DNA from: an uncultured Thermotogae bacterium
GTDB lineage: Bacteria > Bipolaricaulota > Bipolaricaulia > UBA7950 > UBA9294
NCBI GenBank assembly: GCA_964447445.1
Contig: CAYUSW010000065.1
Coordinates: 1,106 to 65,105 of the forward strand
Direction of reading: 5' to 3'
Length of the DNA stretch: 64,000 bases
Every line of letters starts with the position of its first letter. Positions within the stretch are counted from its first letter, which is position 1. A program made the translations under genes and the position numbers. Positions 21,280 to 33,309 of this stretch are shown here, in pieces. The notes beneath the pieces were generated by a model. It did no database searches, was not told where the DNA came from, and worked only from the letters and a program-made list of their open reading frames with translations.

Positions 21280-23006
21280 ACCGGGATCTGGAGATCGCGC
21301 GCTCGGTCGTGCCGCGGCCCATTGCTGAGATTGCGGCGAACCTGGGCCTGCGTGGAGACGAACTCATACCCTTCGGGGACGTCATGGCCAAAGTGCGGCT
21401 GTCCGCCTACGTCGACCGCCGTGAGCGGCCGGACGGCAAGTACGTGGATGTGACGGCCATCACGCCGACGCCGCTCGGCGAAGGCAAGACCACGACGACT
21501 CTCGGCCTTGTGCAGGGTCTGGCTTGTAGGGGGAAGCGCGCGGTGGCGTGCATCCGGCAGCCGTCGCAGGGTCCGACGTTCGGGATCAAGGGAGGAGCGG
21601 CGGGCGGTGGGCACGCCCAGGTGATTCCGATGGAGGATCTGAACCTTCATCTGACGGGCGACTTCCACGCCGTCACCGCTGCCCACAATCTGATCGCTGC
21701 GGCGCTCGATGCCCGGCTGTTCCACGAGCGGGACTTCAGCGACGCCGGCTTGGCGGGTCGTGGACTCCGACGCCTTCACATCGATCCGCAGGGCGTTGTG
21801 TGGCACAGGGTGATCGACACGTGCGACCGTGCGCTGCGTAACGTGGTTGTTGGCCTGGGGGCGAGAGGGGACGGCATCCCGCGGCAGTCGGGGTTCGAGA
21901 TTACCGCGGCGTCGGAACTCATGGCCTGCCTTGCGCTCGCCGACGATCTTGCCGATCTCCGACGGCGCATTGGGCGAGTGATCGTCGCCTACTCGGTCGA
22001 CGGGAGCCCGGTGACCGCCGAGGATCTCGGAGTGGCCGGAGCGGCGGCTGTGCTGATGAAGGAGACGGTGCACCCGACCCTCCTGCAGACGCTCGAGGGG
22101 CAGGGCGTGTTCGTCCACGCGGGTCCATTTGCCAACATTGCGCATGGCAACTCGTCGGTCATCGCGGATCGCCTCGCCCTCAAGCTGGCCGACGTTGTCG
22201 TCACCGAGTCCGGATTCGGCGCGGACGTCGGAATGGAGAAGTTCTTCGATATCAAGTGCCGGGCGAGCGGGCTCTTTCCCGATGTGGTCGTGCTGGTGGC
22301 TACCGTTCGCGCCCTCAAGATGCACGGCGGCGGACCGCGCGTGTCGCCTGGGAAGCCTCTTCCGGAGGCGTACACCCGCGAGGACCTGCGACTTCTCGAA
22401 GCGGGTCTGCCGAACCTGATGCATCACCTCGGGATCGCGCGGAAGTTCGGTGTCCCTTCGGTGGTGGCGGTGAACCGGTTTCCCGAGGACACTCCGCGCG
22501 AGCTGGACATGGTGTGTCGCGCGGCTCGCGGAGCGGGCGGAGCGGCCGTCGTGGCCGATCACTGGGCAAGGGGCGGCGAAGGGGCGATCGATCTTGCCGA
22601 CGCCGTCGGCGACGCGTGGCGCGCAGAGAAGTCGCCCAGGTTCCTCTACCCGCTGGACCTCCCGCTGCGAGAGAAGATCGAGACGATCGCCCGGGAGATC
22701 TATGGCGCGGGGAGCGTCCTCTACGGCGAAGGGGCTGAGAGGGACCTCGAACGCTGCGAGCGACTCGGCTACGGCAAGCTTCCCGTGTGCATGGCGAAGA
22801 CCCATCTGTCTCTGTCGCACGACCCCTCTCTGAAGGGAGCTCCGCAGGGGTTCACGCTTCCGGTGCGCGAAATCCGCGTCAGTGCGGGCGCCGGCTTCGT
22901 CTATCCGCTGTGTGGCGCGATGCAGACCATGCCCGGCCTTCCGGCTCGTCCGGTGTTCATGGGCATCGACCTCGATCCCGAAGGCGATGTGAGAGGCCTT
23001 TCGTAG
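21276..23006 (+). CDS. fhs: formate--tetrahydrofolate ligase
   Basis: PTPLGEGKTTTTLGL P-loop. 576 aa collinear with FTHFS. Confidence 0.9.
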   Translation: MNRDLEIARSVVPRPIAEIAANLGLRGDELIPFGDVMAKVRLSAYVDRRERPDGKYVDVTAITPTPLGEGKTTTTLGLVQGLACRGKRAVACIRQPSQGPTFGIKGGAAGGGHAQVIPMEDLNLHLTGDFHAVTAAHNLIAAALDARLFHERDFSDAGLAGRGLRRLHIDPQGVVWHRVIDTCDRALRNVVVGLGARGDGIPRQSGFEITAASELMACLALADDLADLRRRIGRVIVAYSVDGSPVTAEDLGVAGAAAVLMKETVHPTLLQTLEGQGVFVHAGPFANIAHGNSSVIADRLALKLADVVVTESGFGADVGMEKFFDIKCRASGLFPDVVVLVATVRALKMHGGGPRVSPGKPLPEAYTREDLRLLEAGLPNLMHHLGIARKFGVPSVVAVNRFPEDTPRELDMVCRAARGAGGAAVVADHWARGGEGAIDLADAVGDAWRAEKSPRFLYPLDLPLREKIETIAREIYGAGSVLYGEGAERDLERCERLGYGKLPVCMAKTHLSLSHDPSLKGAPQGFTLPVREIRVSAGAGFVYPLCGAMQTMPGLPARPVFMGIDLDPEGDVRGLS

Positions 23007-23080
23007 CAGGTTCGAGCATTCGGATGCCCGGATGGGCTTGCGTGTTGCCTCCGTGGCCGTCGAGGAGTATGGTCAGCGCG

Positions 23081-24535
23081 ATGAGAAACCAAGAACAGAT
23101 CGACGTTCGGGCGTTGTTCGCGCTGCACCCCTTTGCTCGAGTCATCCTCGAGCGGCTATCCGCCGCCGGACACGAGTCGGTGCTGATCGGTGGCGTTGTC
23201 CGCGATGGCTTGCGCGCCCTCTGGGGGGAGGATGTGGACTACCCGCCAGCGGACGTGGACATTGCCACCGCGGCCCTTCCGGCGGAGATCCGATGGCTCT
23301 TTGACGGGCACCCCATTGTCGGCGTGGGCGAGGAGTTCGGCGTCATCATCATCGTCGCGCCCGACGGGCGTCCCTACGAGGTTGCGACGTACCGCGTCGA
23401 GGGGGAGTACGACGGCCGGTGGCCGGGCCGCGTCGAGCTTGTCCGCGATCTGGCGGGCGACGTTCGCCGGCGAGATCTCACGATCAACGGATTGGCCGCG
23501 ACCGCGGACGGGCGGGTCATCGATCTTGTCGGGGGCGTCGATGACCTCAAGGCGAGGCGCATCCGGGCGATCGGAGATCCAGCCATTCGCTTTGGCGAGG
23601 ATTACCTGCGCATGCTGCGGGCAGTCCGTTTTGCGTGCCAGATCGACGGAGAAGTCGAACCGTCGACCGCGGAAGCCATTGCGGCGCACGCCGGAAAGCT
23701 CGCGGCCATCTCAGGGGAGCGGGTGCGCGATGAGGTCCTGCGACTGCTCGGCACGCCGCGTGCGTGCCGCGGCGTCAGACTCCTCGACGAGCTCGGGCTA
23801 CTACCGGAAATCTTGCCGGAGCTGTCGGCTGGGAAGGGAGTGGCCCAGCCGGAGATCTACCATCCGGAGGGCGACGTCTTCGAACACACCCTTGAGGCCT
23901 TGCGCATAGCGGACCTCTTCATCCGCGATCCCCTCGTGAAACTGGCGGTGCTTCTTCACGACGTGGGGAAACCACAGGCCCTCGAAAGAAACGAGGGAGC
24001 GAACATGGGCGGGCACTGCGCGCTGGGAGCATGGCAGACCAAGCGAATCGCGCAGCGCCTACGGCTGAGTCGGGCCGACGCCGGGAGGCTCGTCTTCGCC
24101 GTCAAGAACCACATGCGGATCGCTGACTTCCCCGAGATGGGAAGAGGCAAGCAAGTGCTCTTCCTCACGGAAGGCGAAGTCCAGGGCGCGCGATGCTTCG
24201 CGGAGCGCTACCCGCGGTTCTTCGAACTACTCCAACTCCTCGTCGCAGACTGCGAGGCCAGCGCGCACCGAGCGGCGGGGTGGGAGCCGATCCTGGTGGA
24301 GACCCTGCGGGTGGTCTTGCACGTCGAGCGAGTGGGCGACGTGCGTCGGGCGCGCGAGCTTGTGGACGGTCACGATCTGAAGGAGCTGGGGATGCCGGAC
24401 GGGCCGGACATGGGTCGACTCCTCGACGTGCTCCACGATCGCATCCTGGCTGGCGAGATCACGTCGCGGGCGGAGGCCATAGAGACGGCACGGGGCCTGC
24501 TCCGGACCCGGCAGGGGACGCTCGGGGGGCAGTGA
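23081..24535 (+). CDS. cca: CCA tRNA nucleotidyltransferase (class II, with C-terminal HD domain)
   Basis: Pol-beta nucleotidyltransferase head (LIGGVVRD...DVDIAT...RDLTING) and an HD segment (LLHDVGKP). The track ORF begins inside fhs. An in-frame ATG at 23081 or 23069 is the likely start. Confidence 0.8.
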   Translation: MRNQEQIDVRALFALHPFARVILERLSAAGHESVLIGGVVRDGLRALWGEDVDYPPADVDIATAALPAEIRWLFDGHPIVGVGEEFGVIIIVAPDGRPYEVATYRVEGEYDGRWPGRVELVRDLAGDVRRRDLTINGLAATADGRVIDLVGGVDDLKARRIRAIGDPAIRFGEDYLRMLRAVRFACQIDGEVEPSTAEAIAAHAGKLAAISGERVRDEVLRLLGTPRACRGVRLLDELGLLPEILPELSAGKGVAQPEIYHPEGDVFEHTLEALRIADLFIRDPLVKLAVLLHDVGKPQALERNEGANMGGHCALGAWQTKRIAQRLRLSRADAGRLVFAVKNHMRIADFPEMGRGKQVLFLTEGEVQGARCFAERYPRFFELLQLLVADCEASAHRAAGWEPILVETLRVVLHVERVGDVRRARELVDGHDLKELGMPDGPDMGRLLDVLHDRILAGEITSRAEAIETARGLLRTRQGTLGGQ

Positions 24536-24634
24536 CGGGACAGGCGACCCCTGGGAATTGACCCGCCCCCTGTACCTTCTCCCTGCGCCGCGGGCGGCAA
24601 CGAGTGCGGGTTCCGCGGGACGGGCAGGGGGAAG

Positions 24635-26167
24635 ATGGGGACGCCACTCAGCATCAGCAGGGACCTTGAGCTCGACCTCGAAACCCTCATTGGGCAATGC
24701 ATTGCGATCCTGGGGATCCGGGGATCCGGCAAGTCAAACACCGCGGGGGTCATCTTCGAGGAGCTGCTCTCGAACAACTACCCCATGTCCATCGTCGACA
24801 TCGAGGGAGAGTACTTCGGATTAAAGGAGAAATACGAAGTACTGGTGGTCGGCACGGGAGACGGGGTGGAGATCGAGATCGACGCCGGGTGCGCGGCGGA
24901 GATCGCCGAGGTCAGCATGGAGAAAAACGTCCCGGTCGTTCTCGACCTCAGCGGGTTCCTCTCGGACGAAAGGAACGAACTGCTGATGGAGTACCTCTCC
25001 AGCCTCTGGAACCTGGCGGGCACCCTCCGGCGTCCCTACATCATCGGAATCGAAGAGGCGCACGAGTTCATACCGCAGGGCGTGAAGACCGAACTCAAGG
25101 AGATGATCGCCCGCATTGCACTGCGCGGCCGCAAGCGCGGCTTGGGGGCTATCGTTGTCTCCCAACGCAGCGCGAAGGTGGACAAGGACGTGTTGAGTCA
25201 GGCTGGCATGCTGCTCCTGCACCGCGTTGTTCACGAGGTCGACATGCGGGTGTACAGCGAGCTTCTTCCGTGGCGGAAGAGCGAGGTGAAAGAGATCATC
25301 GCGTCGCTGGAAACCGGGAACTGCATTTTCGTGAACGGCGAGATCGTCCGTCCGATCTACGTACGCGAACGTGCGACGTTCCATGCGGGGTTCACTCCGT
25401 CACTCGAGGCCGTGGCGACGCCTGAACTGAAGCAGGTGAGCGCCTCTATCATTGAAGCGATCGAACGAGCGCGCGAGGGTCGCGGACGCCGAACGCGGGC
25501 CCAGGAACTCGAAGAGCAGCTTTCCAGAATGCAGGAGAGGGTAGCGGAGAGAGACCAGAGGATCGCCGAACTGGAGGAGACAGCGCGGACGCTGGGGTAC
25601 ATCAAGGTCGAAGTCCCGCAGCCCGCGCCGACGATCGTCACTCAAGATCCCCTGCCCCGAGCTGCCGCGGACGCCGAGTTCGTTTCCGAATCACCGAGTT
25701 CGGCGCGGCGCGACCTTGTGGAGGCCAGAGCCGCGGCGCGCGAACGCGTTGCAGCGGAGACTGGGTGGGGGGTCATCGAGGTCGCACAGCCGGGGCCGAC
25801 AGCGGCCGGCCTTCCTCCGGCCGTCGGGCGGCACATCGACCGCCTCGTGGCTCGGGTGGAGCGCCGAAGTCTGTTGGAGCGCCGCGTTCTGGCGTTTCTC
25901 GTCGAGCACGCTCCCGGCTCGTACACCGCGTCGCAAATCGCCGCGTGGACCAACTGCGCACGAGAGATGATCGAAGACGAGCTGCCGCAGGAACTCCTTG
26001 AGGCGGGGCTGATCGCCCGCGAGAGGAGAACGGACGGCTTGCGCTTCCAGAGCCGACTCCGAACGTTCGTCAGCAGCGAGTTCGCCGTCTACCTTCCGGA
26101 TATTGGCGAGAGCGGCCTGCATGCAATAACCCGCCAGCTCTCAGATCGACTCGTGCGCATTCCCTAG
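24635..26167 (+). CDS. DUF87 (HerA/FtsK-superfamily) P-loop ATPase with central coiled coil and C-terminal winged-helix domain
   Basis: Walker A ILGIRGSGKSNT and the DUF87-type DIEGEY motif are present, with Walker B-like hhhhEEAHEF. Residues about 265-320 are heptad-rich (RAQELEEQLSRMQERVAERDQRIAELEE). The C-terminal about 90 aa resemble a MarR/TrmB-like wHTH (RRVLAFLVEHAPGSYTASQIAAWT...). Confidence 0.6.
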   Translation: MGTPLSISRDLELDLETLIGQCIAILGIRGSGKSNTAGVIFEELLSNNYPMSIVDIEGEYFGLKEKYEVLVVGTGDGVEIEIDAGCAAEIAEVSMEKNVPVVLDLSGFLSDERNELLMEYLSSLWNLAGTLRRPYIIGIEEAHEFIPQGVKTELKEMIARIALRGRKRGLGAIVVSQRSAKVDKDVLSQAGMLLLHRVVHEVDMRVYSELLPWRKSEVKEIIASLETGNCIFVNGEIVRPIYVRERATFHAGFTPSLEAVATPELKQVSASIIEAIERAREGRGRRTRAQELEEQLSRMQERVAERDQRIAELEETARTLGYIKVEVPQPAPTIVTQDPLPRAAADAEFVSESPSSARRDLVEARAAARERVAAETGWGVIEVAQPGPTAAGLPPAVGRHIDRLVARVERRSLLERRVLAFLVEHAPGSYTASQIAAWTNCAREMIEDELPQELLEAGLIARERRTDGLRFQSRLRTFVSSEFAVYLPDIGESGLHAITRQLSDRLVRIP

Positions 26168-26214: not shown

Positions 26215-26243
26215 TTGACCGGTCTCTCTTTTTCTGTCATAAT
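26215..26243 (+). promoter_or_regulatory. sigma70-like promoter (TTGACC-17 nt-CATAAT) for hpf
   Basis: Read directly from the sequence. A GGAAGGGGGAG ribosome-binding site precedes the hpf ATG at 26264. Confidence 0.5.
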
Positions 26244-26263: not shown

Positions 26264-26791
26264 ATGAAGATCAAGATCGCTGAGCGACACGGTCATGCAG
26301 AGTCAAGTCAGGCTTTGCGGGCGTACGTCGTCGAGAAGACGGAGGCGCTCGAGCGGTTCTTCGACCGAATCGTCAGTGTGGACGTCGTCTTGTCGTCAGA
26401 GAAGGAGCGACAGATCGCCGATCTCCACGCACACTTGACGAACAAGAAGCTCATCACGGCGCGCGAGGAATCCACGGACATGTACGCATCCGTCGACAAA
26501 GCCGTGGACCGGCTCCGCCGCCAACTGGTGAAGTTCAAAGACCAGCTTGGGGACGTGAAAGTGCGTGGCGGCGGAGGAGGCGAGCCGGATCGCGGAGGGG
26601 GCGGCGGCGAGAGGCAGATCATCAGAACCGAAACCCACTTCTACAAGCCGATGACGCCCGAGGAGGCGTCGCTTCAGCTGGAGGCGATTGAGAAGGGCTT
26701 CCTCGTGTTCATTGATGCGGAGACCGACGAAGTGGCGATCATCTACCACCGCCGGGACGGCAACTATGGCCTGATCGAGCCGCGACGATAG
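26264..26791 (+). CDS. hpf: ribosome hibernation-promoting factor (long HPF/RaiA type)
   Basis: N-terminal RaiA/YfiA fold, a Gly-rich linker (GGGGGEPDRGGGGGE) and a C-terminal dimerisation domain. Confidence 0.85.
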   Translation: MKIKIAERHGHAESSQALRAYVVEKTEALERFFDRIVSVDVVLSSEKERQIADLHAHLTNKKLITAREESTDMYASVDKAVDRLRRQLVKFKDQLGDVKVRGGGGGEPDRGGGGGERQIIRTETHFYKPMTPEEASLQLEAIEKGFLVFIDAETDEVAIIYHRRDGNYGLIEPRR

Positions 26792-26828
26792 CGCGGAGCG
26801 CTGGGGGAGGGAGGAGTCGGGGTAGGCG

Positions 26829-27881
26829 TTGGCTAAGGTTCTCGTTTTATTCTCGGGCAGTCTGGCAAGTCGCGTTGCGGCGGCGCTTGTGTTGCACCAT
26901 CCTGGTGTGCACTCCATACAGCTCCTGCACTTCCGGTCCCCGTTTGCCTCGGAGACGGAGGAGCTGCGGGAATTGGTCCGCGAGGAGTGGCCCGGAACCG
27001 TCTTCCGTACCCAGTCTCTCAAGCGGGAGTACCTGAGGTTCGTCGAGCCGGACGCTGCGCAGTTCTCGCTTCGGCAGGCGTGCCTTGAGTGTCGAGCCTT
27101 GCTCGTCTCGCGCTCGGTTCGGTACATGGCGCGCGTGGGTGCGGACTTCCTGGCCACCGGCGAACGTCTGGGACGGCATGGTTTGGGCCGCGAGGAGATG
27201 GATTGGCTGGCTGCGCGATATGATGTTCAGAGCCGTATCCTCCGGCCGCTGTGCTTCCGGGCCGGGCACGGGGACTGCGATCTTGAGGGGTGGGGCCGGC
27301 TGGGTGGCCCCCGGGCGATCCACGCCATGGACGACGAAGACCTGGCGAGGCTGGCGACATCGCTTCATTTGAGCTCGTCGAATCGAATGGGGTCGTGTGG
27401 CCGCTGCAAGCTCACGGTGCCCGGTTTCGGCGAGCGGGTCGCCAATCTGTTCGCGGAGGAGGGGTTCACGCTGAACGGCCTGCGGCTCCTCGATTTCTCG
27501 CACTACTACAAGATCGAGCCCTGGGCAAAGGTCGTAGTTGCCGTCGGAGACGAGGAGAAGCGCGAGCTCCAGAACTTGTTCCTTCCGCAGGACCTGCGCG
27601 TGTATCCGGCCACGCCGCATGGCCCGATGGCGCTCGTGCGAACGGACTGGGGAGCAAGAACAGCCGCAGAGAGGACGCGGATCCTCGAGCTGGCAGCGTG
27701 CATCACGGCAACCCACACGAGCGGCGGACGATGTACGTCGGTGCCCATCTACTACCGCCTCGAGAGTGACGACGAGACGCTTCTCCTGCACGCGAAGGCG
27801 TTTCGATCCACCGACGAGCTTCTCGAGATCCCGGGCGTTCAAGCGATGACGCTCGTGGCGGCAGCACCTGCGGCAGCTTGA
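26829..27881 (+). CDS. PP-loop (ThiI/MnmA-like adenine-nucleotide alpha-hydrolase) superfamily protein with degenerate P-loop, plus C-terminal domain of unknown function
   Basis: VLVLFSGSLASRVAA occupies the position of SGGxDS, with Gly->Ser, Asp->Ala and Ser->Ser changes. ATGERLGRHG resembles the ThiI ITGESLGQ motif. There is no THUMP or rhodanese domain. Confidence 0.45.
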   Translation: MAKVLVLFSGSLASRVAAALVLHHPGVHSIQLLHFRSPFASETEELRELVREEWPGTVFRTQSLKREYLRFVEPDAAQFSLRQACLECRALLVSRSVRYMARVGADFLATGERLGRHGLGREEMDWLAARYDVQSRILRPLCFRAGHGDCDLEGWGRLGGPRAIHAMDDEDLARLATSLHLSSSNRMGSCGRCKLTVPGFGERVANLFAEEGFTLNGLRLLDFSHYYKIEPWAKVVVAVGDEEKRELQNLFLPQDLRVYPATPHGPMALVRTDWGARTAAERTRILELAACITATHTSGGRCTSVPIYYRLESDDETLLLHAKAFRSTDELLEIPGVQAMTLVAAAPAAA

Positions 27882-27886
27882 CAGCG

Positions 27887-27914
27887 CGAGCCCGGAGGCT
27901 ATACTCCGACCAAC
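27887..27914 (+). promoter_or_regulatory. sigma70-like promoter (TTGACA-16 nt-TATACT) for the FmdB-rpoC transcription unit
   Basis: Perfect -35 hexamer and a near-consensus -10, read directly from the sequence. It is followed by an about 115-nt leader that contains a small hairpin (CCCTA-cgaggac-TAGGG). Confidence 0.5.
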
Positions 27915-28036
27915 CAGTCTGAACAAGGGATGCGCGGCTTCGGAACGGAGCGTCTGTTTATTCCGCGATCGCGTTTCATGAGAGTAGAGTCAAGAGACCG
28001 TGGTGCTAGCCCTACGAGGACTAGGGCGGGGCAGTT

Positions 28037-28276
28037 ATGCCTTTTTACCGCTTCGAGTGCGCAAGTTGCGGGAGCGAGTTCCGTGTGTTGCGACAAAACG
28101 GCGATGTGGCTCTGGCGACGTGCCCGCACTGCGGCGGCGGCCAGACGAAGCGGCTTCTTCCCCGGATCGGCGTGATCTACAAGGGCAAAGGGTACTACTC
28201 CACGGACTACCGCAAGACCAAGAGTGAAAGCGCGCTGCGCGACTCGGCGGAGTCGACGACGGGAACCGAGAACTAG
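28037..28276 (+). CDS. FmdB-family zinc-ribbon protein
   Basis: MPFYRFECASCGSEF...CPHCGG is the CxxC...CxxC FmdB signature. 79 aa. Confidence 0.8.
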   Translation: MPFYRFECASCGSEFRVLRQNGDVALATCPHCGGGQTKRLLPRIGVIYKGKGYYSTDYRKTKSESALRDSAESTTGTEN

Positions 28277-28331
28277 GGCAAACGGAGCGGCCGCGCGGCG
28301 CAGCTCGGCTGCCACGGAAGACTAAGGAGAG

Positions 28332-31300
28332 GTGAGGCAAGTGATTGCCGGCGATGACATCCGTCGCATAAAGCTGCAGCTGGCTCCACCGTCGGTGATT
28401 CTCGGCTGGTCGCACGGAGAGATCACGGAGTCCGAGACGATCAACTACCGAACGCATCGGGCGGAGCGGGGCGGCTTGTACGCCGAAGAGATCTTCGGGC
28501 CCGCCAACGACTACGAGTGCGCGTGCGGCAAGTACAAGGGCAAGAAGTACGAGGGGATCACGTGCGAGAAGTGTCACGTCCTCGTCACAGACTCATCGGT
28601 TCGGCGCGTCAACATGGCGCACATCCAACTGGCCAGCCCCGTGGTCCACTTCTGGTTCCTCAAGGGGGTGTCCAGCCTTCTCAGTCGTCTCTTGGGGTTG
28701 AAGCGCCGCGAGCTCCAGCGGATCGCGTACTACGAGACCGAGCCCCTTGAGCAGGCTCTCTACATCGTCACGACGTCCGGAAGCAAGGAAGTGCGGCCAG
28801 GCGAGTCGCTGTATGCGTCCGAACACGCGATCCTGTCCCAGGCGTTGACCTTCGAGGTGGAGCCCGCATACTACCTCGACGAAGCCCCCCGCGTTCTCGC
28901 GGAGGAGGGTGGGCGAGTCACGATCGAAGAGCGGCAGCTGACGAACGGCGAGCGCATTCGCTCGGTCATCATCGGGAGTCAGGAGTACCCGATGGTGGGC
29001 GAGGCCGAGATCATGCTCGAGGACGGCGACGAGGTGGAAGCGGACACCGTGATCGCCGAGCGTCCGGTGGGCGAGATCTGCTCGAAGACAGCCTACGACA
29101 TGCTGGTGGACCGCTACGGCGCGGTCACGGGAGAGCCGCTCGATCGAGAGGTGCTGGACAGCTTGGCGTTCATCGTGACGCAGATCAAGGATCGCGACAT
29201 CCCCCTCTCGATCGGAGAGCGGCTGACCTATCTCGAGAAGCGCGCGTACGAACGCATCTATCCGGACGGCTTCGCGGCCGAGACAGGCGCCGCTGGAATC
29301 AAGGGCATTCTCCAGTCGCTCGACGTAGAGGAGCTCTACGCGTCTCTCACTGAAGAGCTGCGCCAGGAGACGAGCATCGGCAACCAGCGGCGACTCATGA
29401 AGCGGCTCGAGGTGGTGGATCAGTTGCGGCGCTCCGGCAACAACCCGCAGGACATGATCCTCGATGCGGTTCCGGTTCTTCCACCCGACCTGCGCCCGAT
29501 GATCCAGCTTGAGGGCGGGAAGTTCGCTACGACGGACCTGAACGACCTCTACCGCCGAATCATCAACCGGAACAACCGCCTCAAGAAGCTGGTCGACATG
29601 GGTGCTCCGGAAGTGATCCTGCGGAATGAGCGACGGATGCTGCAGGAAGCGGTCGACGCCCTGATTCACAACGAGAAGAAGGAGAGCCCGATTCGGGGGC
29701 GCGACAACCGCCCGCTCAAGTCGTTGTCCGAACGGATCCACGGCAAGCACGGTCGGCTGCGTCGCAACCTGCTGGGTCGTCGCGTCGACTATTCGGGACG
29801 TGCCGTCATCGTTGTCGATCCGAAGCTGAAGCTGGCGCAGTGCGGGATTCCGAAGAAGATGGCGCTCGAGCTGTTCAAGCCGTTCATCTTGCACTACCTC
29901 GAGACGACGACGTTCTCCGACTTCGACGAGATCAAGAATCGTGCCCTCATGGGCGAGATGCCCGAGGTGTGGGACATCCTTGACAAGCTCATCAAGAAGC
30001 ACCCGGTGCTTCTCAACCGCGCCCCGACGCTCCACCGGCTCTCGATGCAGGCGTTCGAGCCGATCCTGGTGGACGGCGAGGCCATTCATGTCCACCCCTT
30101 GGTGTGCCCGCCCTACAACGCGGACTTCGACGGCGACACGATGTCGGTGCACCTTCCGCTTTCTCCCGAGGCCATCGCGGAGGCACGGGAACTCATGGCG
30201 GCGCCGCGCAACATCCTCTCGCCGTCGAGCGGCGAGCCCATCACGTTGCCGACGCAAGACCCGATCTTCGCCTTCTACTTCCTGACCCTCGAGGAGCCTG
30301 AGGGGAAGGGGAAGGGGAAGGCATTCCGCGACATCGACGAGGCCCAAAGAGCCTTCGAGACAGGAGCCCTAGGACTGCACAGCCTGGCGAAGATCCGCAT
30401 CGACGGACAGATCGTCGACACCACTCTAGGTCGCGCCGAGGTGAACCGAGTCCTTCCCGAACCGATTCGCGACTACAGCCGCGTCATTGACCGGCGGACC
30501 GTGAAGAAGATCGTCATGCGCTGCTTCCACGAGTACGGCTGGGAGAAGACAGCCGAGGTCTTGGATGATCTGAAGGACCTTGGGTTCAAGTATGCCACGT
30601 ATGCCGGCCTCACGATCTCACTCAAGGACTGCCTCATCCCCGTGGAGAAGACTGGCATTGTTCGCGAGTCCCAAGCCGCCGTGCTGCGCATCGAGACCAT
30701 GTTCAAGATGGGGCTGTCCACGGAGGAGGAGCGCCGCGACGCGGTGATTCGCATCTGGCGGCGCACGGTGGATGACGTGGAGCACGCCACGATGGAGAAC
30801 CTGCGTCAGCACCTGTTCAACCCCGTGTATGGAATGGTCATGTCTGGCGCGCGGGGAGGTCCGGACCAGGTCAAGCAGCTCTGCGGGATGCGGGGACCCA
30901 TGGCGGGTCCGTCGGGCGAGATCATCGAGAGGCCCGTCATCTCGAACTTCCGCGAAGGGCTGGACATGATGGAGTACTTCATCTCCACCCACGGCGGGCG
31001 CAAGGGCGCGGCGGACACGGCGCTGAAGACGGCCGACTCGGGCTACCTGACCCGGCGCCTCGTGGACGCGTCGTCCGACACGATCATCCGTGCGGTCGAC
31101 TGCGGGACGACGCAGGGTGTGGAGATTGATCCCCTACGGTTCAGCAAATCGGAAACGATGGAGGCGATTGAAGAGCGCATCTACGGGCGAGTCACCGCGT
31201 CGCCCGTGATCGACCCGTCAAGCGGTGACGTGGTCGCGGATGCCAATCAGTGGATCACGCAGGAAATGGCCACACTGATCGGCCAGATGGAGTGCGAGCT

Positions 31301-33309
31301 GTCCACCGCGAGCGCGGCCGACCGCGAGCGCATGATCGGTGCGAAGAGCCTGCACGACGTCAAAGAACCTCGCACCGGGCGAGTGATCCTGAGGCAGGAC
31401 GAGATGCTGACAGCGCGTCTCGCGGAGACCCTGCGCGCGGCGAAGATCAAGAAGATTCAGGTGCGGCCCCGCGTGGTGATCCGCTCCGCGATGACTTGCG
31501 AGTCAACCGGAGGAGTGTGCCAGCTCTGCTACGGATATGACATGAGCAGCCATCAGCCGGTCGCGTTGGGGACGGCCGTAGGGGTCATCGCGGCGCAGTC
31601 TATCGGAGAGCCCGGCACGCAGCTGACGATGCGCACGTTCCATCTGGGCGGCGTTGCTGGAGAAGACATCACGCAGGGACTGCCTCGTGCCGAGGAGCTG
31701 TTCGAGGCGCGGAAGACGCCGAAGGAGAGCGAGGCGGGAATCTCACCGCTGGACGGGTTCGTCACCAGCGTCGTGTCCACGGAGACAGGACACGACCAAG
31801 TGGAGATCACCGGAGAGCCGCGGGACATCCTCGTGCCGGCAGGAATCCTCAAAGCCGAAGAGGGTGACGAGGTCGCGACCGAGGACCTGATTCGTACGAA
31901 GAGCCCGTGCAAGCGAGGTCTACATCCTGCGCGCCGACGATGGCAGCCAGGAACTCCTGCTGCTGGATCCCGCGAGCGGCGACCGATCGTACACCATCCC
32001 GCGCGGAGCTACGGTCAAGGTTGAGACCGGCGATGTCGTCGAGGCGAAAGATGCCCTAACGGACCGCTTCAACGTGGAACCGGTCGTTGCGACGCGGAAA
32101 GCAAAGGTCGAATTGTCCGAAGAGAACGACAGGGTGTTCCGACTCGTGTTTGGCGAGGGAGACGTGGTCGAACACGAGATCCCCTACGGCGGCCGACTGC
32201 TCGTGGAGCCGGGGCAGACCGTGCAGGCGGGGAAAGCCGTCACATCGCGCTCGAAGCCCATCTTCGTCGCTGCGGAGGGTGAAGGGACTGCCGTCGTCTT
32301 GGACGATCGGATCCTCGTGTACAACCCGGAGGGAGGACTGCGGATTCCGCTCACGGCAGACATCTCGTCCCTGAAGGGGCACGGGGAAACCGTGCGCGCC
32401 GGCGAGCCGCTCGTCCGGCTCGAGGTGCCGCACGTCGGCGAGGTGCGCGTGGAATCGATCGAGATCCATGGCGAAATCGCCAAAGTGAGAATCGAGCCGA
32501 AGAGCGTGGTGACGATCGACAAAGCAGTCACGGTACGCGTGGGCGACAAGATCGAAGAGGGAGACCTGTTAACCAAAGGGATCGTGGCGCCGCACACGGT
32601 GCTCGCGGCTGCCGGCGTTCAGAAGGCCCGTCAGTACCTCTTGACGGAGATCCACAAGGTGTACAGGCAGCAAGGCGTGGACATTAACGACAAGCATCTC
32701 GAGGTGATCATTCGCCAGATCCTGAACAACGTGCGGATCATGGACAAGGGTGACTCGCGCTTCCTGCTGGGTGATCTCGTCACGCTGGAGGAGTTCCGCA
32801 AGGAGGTCAAGACTCTGGCTCTGTGGAACCAGGAAGCGGACAAGACGCGCGCAGAGGCGCTGAGTCTTCCCCTGGCGGAAGATGTGACCGTCGATGACCA
32901 AATCGCGGCCCGGAGCGGAGAGCCTCTGACGGCCCTCGTGTTGGCAACGGCCAGGAGGGCGAAGATCGACGTCGTCCGGGTCGTGCGGGACGAGGAGGAG
33001 GTCGAGGTCCCCGTCGCGGAGAAGCGGCTGCCTGCCGGCGACCGCGAGCTCTTGAGGATCTCGAAGGCGGCCTTGCAGACGAAGGGGTGGCTCTCCGCCG
33101 CGTCGTTCCAGCGAACGACGAAAGTGCTCGCCGAGGCGGCGCTGCGCGGCGAGACCGACGAACTGGAAGGGCTGAAGCCGAGCATCATTGTGGGAAAACG
33201 GATCCCCGCTGGGACGGGCTTCCGGCCCCTCGTCAGCGCGGGGGTGCCTGCCGGCAGCGCCGACGTGCCCGCAGCCGAAGAGCCGGCGGATGACGAGGAT
33301 TCTGCGTAG
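28332..33309 (+). CDS. rpoC: DNA-directed RNA polymerase subunit beta-prime, with an apparent frameshift near 31.90 kb (two ORF pieces 28332-32024 and 32074-33309)
   Basis: Zinc-binding motif CxCGKYK..C.KC, NADFDGD active site, trigger loop/bridge-helix regions and the C-terminal ...[12 protein letters not shown] are all present. The reading frame changes between about 31895 and 31912. The downstream frame read back to about 31903 continues beta-prime sensibly ([18 protein letters not shown]...). The start is GTG 28332 or 28341, after an AAGGAG ribosome-binding site. Confidence 0.85.

Follow-up and report, generated by a model that had tools for sequence, protein, structure and literature searches.

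The pumping ATPases of the FtsK-HerA superfamily power processes such as chromosome segregation, the repair of DNA, conjugation and the packaging of viruses, and several anti-phage systems are likewise driven by them. FtsK and SpoIIIE carry a winged helix at the C-terminus, tethered to the motor by a flexible linker, and Streptomyces TraB also joins motor, linker and winged helix. Other described members are HerA, with its HAS barrel and its partner NurA, the HerAs of defence systems, and viral packaging ATPases with a minimal fold. Here we analyze a gene of this superfamily, hereafter X, found at positions 24635-26167 on the forward strand of a 64-kb stretch of DNA (the window) from an uncultured Thermotogae bacterium placed by GTDB in Bipolaricaulota (contig CAYUSW010000065.1). 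A previous description made from the letters alone (the sequence-only reading) had seen in X a stand-alone DUF87 ATPase fused to a coiled coil and a C-terminal domain of the winged helix-turn-helix (wHTH) type, and had leaned toward a role in defence or conjugation. We found instead that X is a single-copy, very highly conserved core gene of Bipolaricaulota, and not a defence or mobile gene. A literature search on X and on HerA/FtsK-type proteins of Bipolaricaulota returned no account of X.

More than 100 full-length homologues of X have 65-86% identity to it, and those with informative names all come from Bipolaricaulota or from metagenome-assembled genomes (MAGs) labelled as Thermotogota, which assigns the window to this phylum, also called OP1 or Acetothermia. 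Scanning one genome per GTDB species yielded 541 relatives. We examined the best 80 loci, of which ~76 are from Bipolaricaulota; a few of these bear the label 'uncultured Thermotogae' or 'Thermotoga sp.', yet share the synteny. Since all isolate names differ among these 80 loci, X appears to be present in one copy per genome. The gene order (infB-DUF503-rbfA-fhs)-cca-X-hpf-ThiI/NFACT-R-like-zinc ribbon-rpoC is found in 64 species loci, including deep lineages in which X has 46-50% identity. A sub-lineage carries the gene in a second, equally fixed context of housekeeping genes, rimP-rluD-pgsA-dcd-thyX-X-HU-pheS-glmS, observed in 11 species-representative loci and in a metagenome contig (L091). 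The proteins of this second clade (X2) have ~550-605 residues (605 in P0122) and ~45-47% identity to X of the window.

The strength of conservation differs greatly along the protein. Across the 64 syntenic species, the median identity to X of the window is 81.5% for the ATPase domain, compared with 74% for the RpoC segment, 75% for FHS, 67% for IF2, 66% for HPF and 64% for CCA, all encoded in the same block. For the other parts of X, it is 59% (coiled coil) and 53% (winged helix). In a neighbor-joining tree of the ATPase domain, the Bipolaricaulota sequences form one clade with short branches (99/100 bootstraps), whose sister comprises Methanobacterium, a 'Geoglobus'-labelled MAG and the representative sequences P0125 and P0128. 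The single clade, its short branches and the high identity of the ATPase are the signature of one acquisition of X, followed by vertical inheritance under strong purifying selection. An origin of the Bipolaricaulota gene as part of an integrated element was considered and rejected on the basis of synteny, composition (the GC content of X is 0.65, equal to that of its flanks) and phylogeny. The lean toward defence or conjugation is thus not upheld: X is single-copy, vertically inherited and syntenic throughout the phylum, and its ATPase domain is more conserved than RpoC.

On sequence and predicted structure, the N-terminal domain of X is classified as a minimal HerA-class member of the FtsK-HerA superfamily (Table 1). 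The sequence-only reading had placed the first 260 residues in the DUF87/HerA-FtsK clade from the Walker A motif and the DIEGEY box, and Pfam, HerA alignments and fold comparison all agree with it. The Pfam family DUF87 (PF01935) matches residues 10-96 (54.8 bits against a cut-off of 23.2, E = 1.9e-14), and the HerA models of NCBIfam and PADLOC, the MADS mad8 model and the solved HerA chains all align to residues 12-62 and ~109-245. HerA (4D2I from S. solfataricus, 9X1L from T. kodakarensis) is the closest relative of the ATPase core in both sequence and fold: the two proteins have in common Walker A, D-x-x-G-E-Y, a Walker B of the form hhhhEEAH, (E/R)GRK-x-G and SQR. The phmmer alignments to 9X1L and 4D2I extend over Walker B (IIGIEEAHEF), RGRKRGLG and VSQRSAKV, and DIEGEY aligns to 'DphGdY' and 'DyhGEY' of the solved chains.

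We evaluated conservation on an alignment of the close X clade (A1) and on one of diverse family members (A2). In the latter, G27, G32 and K33 of Walker A are invariant, as are E141 in Walker B and G165, R166 and G169 in RGRKRGLG; D55 and E59 of DIEGEY are also invariant family-wide. Altogether the residues K33, D55, E59, E141, R166 and Q177 of the catalytic motifs do not vary across the whole family. RGRKRGLG is a candidate arginine finger or sensor, a catalytic role proposed from its alignment to HerA. Just past the ATPase core lies a further motif, TFHAGFTP, with H250 and P255 invariant and T248 and T254 conserved in at least 90% of the sequences of A2.

The AlphaFold model of X has a predicted local distance difference test (pLDDT) of ~80 over residues 10-245, and its RecA-like core superposes on HerA, B204 and the PH1 ATPase. 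In Foldseek searches with this model, the HerAs of T. kodakarensis and S. solfataricus rank first (E = 1e-10), and are followed by defence-type HerAs and by the compact STIV2 B204 packaging ATPase, the latter with a target-normalised template modelling (TM) score of ~0.7. Among viral models, the best match is the 240-residue ATPase of Haloarcula virus PH1 (target-normalised TM ~0.7), followed by corticovirus and A32-like packaging ATPases. The STIV2 B204, PH1, Corticoviridae and A32-like enzymes resemble X in size, in their minimal FtsK-HerA fold and in having Walker A close to the N-terminus. The likeness is one of structure alone, at 14-23% identity; neither the coiled coil nor the wHTH is present in the viral proteins, whereas X stands among cellular core genes.

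X differs from HerA in several respects. Residue 12 of X aligns to residue 134 or 170 of HerA; the first 130-170 residues of HerA thus have no counterpart, leaving no room for a HAS barrel, and Walker A already begins at residue 27, so that the absence of this domain had been read correctly. The block connecting the Walker A and Walker B sides, an insertion of ~190 residues in 9X1L (from 221 to 410), is cut to ~47 in X (from 62 to 109). Unlike HerA, X continues beyond the ATPase into a coiled coil, a linker and a wHTH domain. It also lacks the NurA partner, again as previously claimed: no NurA gene was found beside X, whether in the window or in those related loci that were checked (tblastn for 64, gene and Pfam tables for three), and in the window its neighbors are fhs and cca on one side, and hpf, a ThiI/NFACT-R-like gene, a zinc ribbon gene and rpoC on the other (Pfam and gene tables). 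The NCBIfam HerA equivalogs (NF040819/NF040937) score X at 78.2 bits versus 970 and 67 bits versus 800, which places it outside canonical HerA. The PADLOC HerA and MADS mad8 models match X (E from 6e-27 to 4e-14), and solved defence HerAs are among its top fold matches; the PADLOC matches cover just the ATPase core common to all HerA-like proteins. Defence HerAs, as in SIR2-HerA and DUF4297-HerA, pair with an adjacent effector and are patchily distributed in defence islands, whereas X is a conserved core gene on its own, with no effector, nuclease or partner gene adjoining it in the window or in the syntenic loci.

Beyond the ATPase, the sequence-only reading had described one long heptad-rich segment. 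A real coiled coil is present, with a single a/d register over ~35 residues and with hydrophobic a and d positions kept in relatives at 30-40% identity. Its extent is only five heptads: the remainder is a flexible tether that had gone undescribed. Residues 331-389 are disordered in the model (pLDDT < 50); their sequence and length change from species to species, and they resist alignment. The coiled coil ends in a strand-like motif in which T319, L320, G321, Y322, I323, E326 and P328 are invariant in A1; relatives carry L-S-x-L-K-V-x-V at this place.

The C-terminal domain had been read as a MarR/TrmB-like wHTH, and this identification is supported by the topology of the model. With the single sequence, no wHTH family of Pfam reaches its gathering score (MarR_2 has 14 bits versus 27). 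A profile built from 24 diverse C-terminal segments matches AF2008 (1SFX) with E = 2.3e-4 over 98 residues and ArsR with E = 2.8e-4; Lrp, Lrs14, SmtB, BlaI, MarR and RuvB winged-helix entries are matched more weakly. The domain shows the H1-b1-H2-H3-b2-wing-b3 topology of MarR/ArsR/TrmB-type wHTHs, and in the model of the C-terminal fragment the wing strands occupy fragment positions 73-78 and 81-86.

That this domain is a built-in DNA reader, as was previously proposed, is doubtful for the X clade. The charge of the recognition helix is -4 in X and -1 to -5 in group-1 Bipolaricaulota, compared to -3 to +2 (mostly -1 to +2) in relatives. The start of the helix, polar in relatives (Y-S-E-S-T-L...N-P-P), reads C-A-R-E-M-I-E-D-E-L-P in X, with the loss of the S/T residues, and the whole domain is about neutral in the X clade (-1 to +6) versus ~+5 to +10 in most relatives. 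An acidic recognition helix poor in S/T makes sequence-specific reading of DNA by X doubtful. The wing, with its RERRTDG segment, is the sole part that stays basic, and its residues E463, R464, R465 and G468 are invariant in A1. From its sequence, there is a serious possibility that the winged helix of X may bind a protein instead, or contact DNA in a non-canonical manner.

The resemblance of this layout to FtsK, pointed out in the sequence-only reading, is reasonable as an analogy, given that X and FtsK/SpoIIIE belong to the same superfamily and both have a motor followed by a linker and a winged helix. It does not extend to the domains themselves. No Pfam match to FtsK_SpoIIIE (PF01580) or Ftsk_gamma was found in X at E <= 0.1, and the motor of E. 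coli FtsK aligns to X over a 49-residue region around Walker B alone (E = 0.004). The winged helix of X resembles MarR/ArsR/TrmB regulators and, unlike FtsK gamma, has an acidic recognition helix. As judged from the ORF (open reading frame) and alignments, the ATPase of X begins at residue 1, unlike FtsK, and has no N-terminal extension in which a membrane anchor could lie. With the same E. coli motor as query, no FtsK-like gene besides X was detected in the window or in the fetched loci. X is a member of an uncharacterised DUF87 branch, outside canonical HerA, FtsK/SpoIIIE and the HerA-based defence systems; none of these comparisons placed it in a family of housekeeping ATPases that is well characterised.

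The wider family was delineated by searching exhaustively among representatives at 50% identity, with 9,335 matches at E <= 1e-3 and 446 at E <= 1e-30. Fifty-four of the best 150 matches also match the profile of the C-terminal domain, most of them 450-520 residues long, and the arrangement of ATPase, coiled coil and wHTH is common to relatives at 30-46% identity to X. Named relatives, annotated 'DUF87 domain-containing' or 'ATP-binding protein', come from Methanobacterium subterraneum, Methanobacterium sp. CWC-01, Ktedonobacteraceae and Bacillota MAGs. Outside Bipolaricaulota, these relatives are accessory genes in variable contexts, mostly resembling mobile elements or restriction and DNA-processing loci. 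One relative lies with resolvase, recombinase, HTH_3 and VWA genes, another with SPL, a Dcm methyltransferase and strings of small ORFs, and a third, in a Bacillota MAG, with an ImmA/IrrE-type regulator, a SNF2/NOV_C helicase and a DUF1156 methyltransferase. HsdR is found by a relative in a Ktedonobacterales MAG, and RecD2 and DprA by one in a Chloroflexia MAG; the Methanobacterium genes sit among metabolic genes. More distant relatives occur on haloarchaeal plasmids, near virus- or plasmid-like ORFs with MCM, PolB, Orc1 and HNH, and, in one case, in a Caudoviricetes contig. An archaeal cluster, arCOG00280, has been described as the 'HerA-like helicase' of dark-matter islands (PMC4158269), and the family of DUF87 ATPase, coiled coil and wHTH possibly overlaps it, a candidate link.

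The accessory relatives have the three-part layout of X, and differ from it by a polar or basic recognition helix and, often, by small partner proteins. One to three copies of a protein of 135-175 residues flank the relatives in Methanobacterium, the 'Geoglobus' MAG, a Bacillota MAG and Ktedonobacteraceae (blastp 1e-9 to 1e-19), and two of these loci, L068 and L089, additionally encode a protein of 253 residues (2e-30). Judged by eye, the small partners seem to begin with a helical or coiled-coil stretch and to end in a part that resembles a winged helix. Neither they nor the 253-residue protein had a significant match in Pfam (with one sub-threshold match), PHROG or PADLOC, and none of their homologues was found in the window by tblastn or hidden Markov model search. 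Homology of the small proteins with the C-terminal domain of X was tried and is not supported (best E ~1e-3 against 20 sequences). Together with the relative of X, they look like an undescribed multi-gene cassette.

These observations lead us to propose, with confidence about evenly balanced, that X is a ring-shaped nucleic-acid motor with a housekeeping role on the chromosome. The choice of DNA is based on the closest relatives, since HerA, B204, PH1 and A32-like proteins are double-stranded DNA translocases or packaging ATPases. By analogy with HerA, FtsK and the viral packaging ATPases, the ATPase of X would form a ring, in which ATP would drive translocation on nucleic acid or its remodelling, with double-stranded DNA as the most likely substrate. 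The C-terminal arms would be held in pairs or bundles by the coiled coil, and the tethered winged helices would dock the motor on its target, which may be a protein partner or else DNA, contacted mainly by way of the basic wing. A single capture of the family is probable, from a cassette of the type now seen in Methanobacterium, in the 'Geoglobus'-labelled MAG contig and in Bacillota, after which it would have been fixed for some chromosomal duty, for example in segregation, resolution, repair or the handling of the nucleoid. That Bipolaricaulota took the ATPase-wHTH protein of such a cassette, dropped its partners and turned it into an essential, phylum-specific chromosome-handling motor whose remodelled acidic wHTH docks on a host protein is a more novel scenario, to which we can attach only a rather low likelihood. 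In this scenario, the motor might for example substitute for or complement FtsK in segregation or dimer resolution, or remodel the nucleoid.

Several observations weigh against a chromosomal motor. The neighbors in the main block are genes of translation and transcription, which do not point to DNA metabolism, and since the two contexts of X share no neighbor, guilt by association yields no partner. The DUF87 match is limited to residues 10-96 and the HerA equivalog scores lie far under their cut-offs; the recognition helix of the X clade is acidic and short, with a kink where prolines are conserved. Lastly, our literature search gave no biochemical or genetic characterisation of any member of the family. 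If the proposal holds, X would be a minimal HerA-type motor with a layout seen in no characterised member, and it ranks among the most conserved genes of an uncultured phylum, a pattern that points to an unrecognised, probably essential function in nucleic-acid handling. The history of X has, in addition, the look of a clear-cut recruitment of an accessory or mobile-cassette motor to core cell biology, and it cautions against calling every stand-alone HerA-like gene a defence gene. Small, soluble and highly conserved, the protein is a convenient target for biochemistry and structural work. In our view, the interest of X lies less in a candidate role in defence than in its being an ultra-conserved orphan motor found across a phylum.

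A different explanation, which we regard as unlikely, is that X is an ATP-switched regulator of transcription or of the nucleoid, in which the winged helix would bind an operator and the ATPase would serve as an oligomerisation switch, not as a translocase. Its operators could possibly be the upstream GGGACAnnCGnCC element, or sites near hpf and rpoC. Such a role would fit the C-terminal domain, whose fold and profile resemble those of dimeric MarR/ArsR/TrmB repressors, C-terminal helix included, and would fit the site-specific conserved motif in the promoter region of X, the fixed synteny with hpf and rpoC and the presence of HU next to X in the other clade. Nonetheless, the extreme constraint falls on the ATPase and not on the winged helix (81.5% versus 53% median identity), the recognition helix is acidic and has lost its polar S/T residues, and X keeps all the catalytic residues of a translocating HerA-type motor. 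The neighbors, furthermore, are unrelated between the two X clades.

The fixed place of the gene among infB, rbfA, cca, hpf, rpoC, rpsL, rpsG and fusA could also suggest a motor linked to RNA or to the ribosome. We consider this very unlikely: we know of no member of the FtsK-HerA superfamily that acts on RNA, the second clade has X by dcd, thyX and HU, which is a DNA-related context, and separate promoters appear to serve X and hpf. Least probable of all is a single-gene anti-phage or anti-plasmid system, or a conjugation ATPase, that senses or pumps foreign DNA, since the matches that favor it (the PADLOC HerA and MADS mad8 models, the phrog_2666 'terminase large subunit' at 2e-19, and relatives at 30-46% identity located by resolvases, recombinases, ImmA/IrrE, Dcm, HsdR and a DUF1156 methyltransferase, or carried by haloarchaeal plasmids) are limited, for PADLOC, to the common ATPase core, and face a gene that is single-copy, universal in the sampled species, vertical, of fixed synteny and native composition, above RpoC in ATPase conservation and without an adjoining effector, that is, the opposite of patchy, fast-evolving defence genes.

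Table 1. Features of X and of its flanking DNA in the window, and loci of relatives that carry small partner proteins (last row, coordinates within each locus)
Feature	Coordinates	Strand	Details
Complete ORF of X	24635..26167	+	510 residues plus stop, ATG start
Compact HerA-class P-loop ATPase domain (predicted)	24635..25420	+	Residues 1-262; DUF87, HerA alignments, Foldseek
Walker A GIRGSGKSNT	24713..24742	+	Residues 27-36; invariant in A1
DIEGEY, the HerA D-x-x-G-E/D-Y motif	24797..24814	+	Residues 55-60; invariant across the clade
Walker B and catalytic glutamates YIIGIEEAHEF	25037..25069	+	Residues 135-145; aligned to HerA Walker B
RGRKRGLG, counterpart of HerA EGRKFGVG	25124..25147	+	Residues 164-171; alignment to solved HerA
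TFHAGFTP motif	25376..25399	+	Residues 248-255
Coiled coil, five heptads	25496..25600	+	Residues 288-322; heptad register, modelled helix 288-320
TLGYIKVEVP strand-like motif	25589..25618	+	Residues 319-328
Low-complexity, disordered linker	25625..25801	+	Residues 331-389, ~60 residues
Winged-helix domain with flanking helices	25802..26164	+	Residues 390-510
Recognition-helix region NCAREMIEDELPQE	25952..25993	+	Residues 440-453; acidic, kinked at conserved proline(s)
Beta-hairpin wing LIARERRTDGLRFQSR	26009..26056	+	Residues 459-474; net charge +3
Conserved element GGGACAGGCGACCC	24537..24550	+	Consensus GGGACAnnCGnCCY; 2 nt past cca stop, ~92 nt before X start
TACCTT, -10-like TAnnnT hexamer	24573..24578	+	~22 nt after the conserved element
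Sigma-70-like hpf promoter TTGACC, 17-nt spacer, CATAAT	26215-26243	+	Upstream TG
Relatives of X with small proteins	L092 6976-8981, L068 3194-5273, L089 4439-6297, L094 12018-13120

The start codon of X is fixed by the N-terminus MGTPLxISxDL, common to all close homologues (A1), and a G-rich stretch resembling a Shine-Dalgarno sequence precedes the ATG. Spacers of 99 bp on the cca side and 96 bp on the hpf side surround the gene. In the former we observed a conserved element whose GGACA..CG.CC core is invariant in 18/18 aligned loci; the element is present in most group-1 loci, and deep lineages have an inverted form, the reverse complement CATGTCCC. GGGACAGGCGACCC occurs only once as an exact copy within the window, and a general promoter motif was rejected for this reason. 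An RNA element in the spacer was also considered and rejected, with 3 predicted pairs, no covariation and no Rfam family. The TACCTT hexamer is a putative part of a promoter, its place being occupied by TACCGT, TAGGCT or TAGTCT in related loci; on its sequence, the element together with the TAnnnT hexamer is probably a promoter or operator for a putative factor. Downstream, hpf has a sigma-70-like promoter of its own, and dinucleotide-preserving shuffles of the hpf upstream region contain on average 0.1 such sites. Because of this conserved, site-specific upstream motif and the separate promoter of hpf, X appears to be a transcription unit of its own, regulated independently and in a conserved manner. 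Our results thus agree with the previous description, in which the gene stood alone between cca and hpf behind a spacer of its own.

Among the neighboring genes, the longest cca ORF (22787-24535, +) starts with GTG at 22787 and overlaps the end of fhs (23006) by ~220 nt; since cca homologues have 481-500 residues, the sequence suggests that the true start lies near 23.05-23.1 kb. Between hpf and rpoC, a gene of 350 residues (26829-27881, +) matches NFACT-R_2 (8e-5) and ThiI (0.012), both under the gathering score. It is syntenic in 53 species with a median identity of 49%, and has no PADLOC match. Directly upstream of rpoC, an ORF of 79 residues (28037-28276, +) with two CxxC pairs (MPFYRFECASCGSEF...CPHCGG) is conserved in 41 related loci, and we take it to resemble zinc ribbons of the FmdB type.

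In all Bipolaricaulota loci examined (L001-L080), rpoC is preceded by hpf, the ThiI/NFACT-R-like gene and the zinc-ribbon gene, and not by rpoB (26264-33309 in the window); the strongly conserved RpoB motif GDKxAGRHGNKG, moreover, is absent throughout the window. On these grounds rpoB and rpoC appear to be unlinked, which is unusual for bacteria. Finally, rpoC of the window is split by a frameshift at 31909-31925 into ORFs of 28332-32024 and 32074-33309. RpoC homology moves from frame 3 to frame 1 near 31.9 kb, the upstream ORF terminates in out-of-frame sequence, and the RpoC of relatives is a single protein of 1,571-1,662 residues. The frameshift is probably an error of assembly or sequencing, a real split being less likely.

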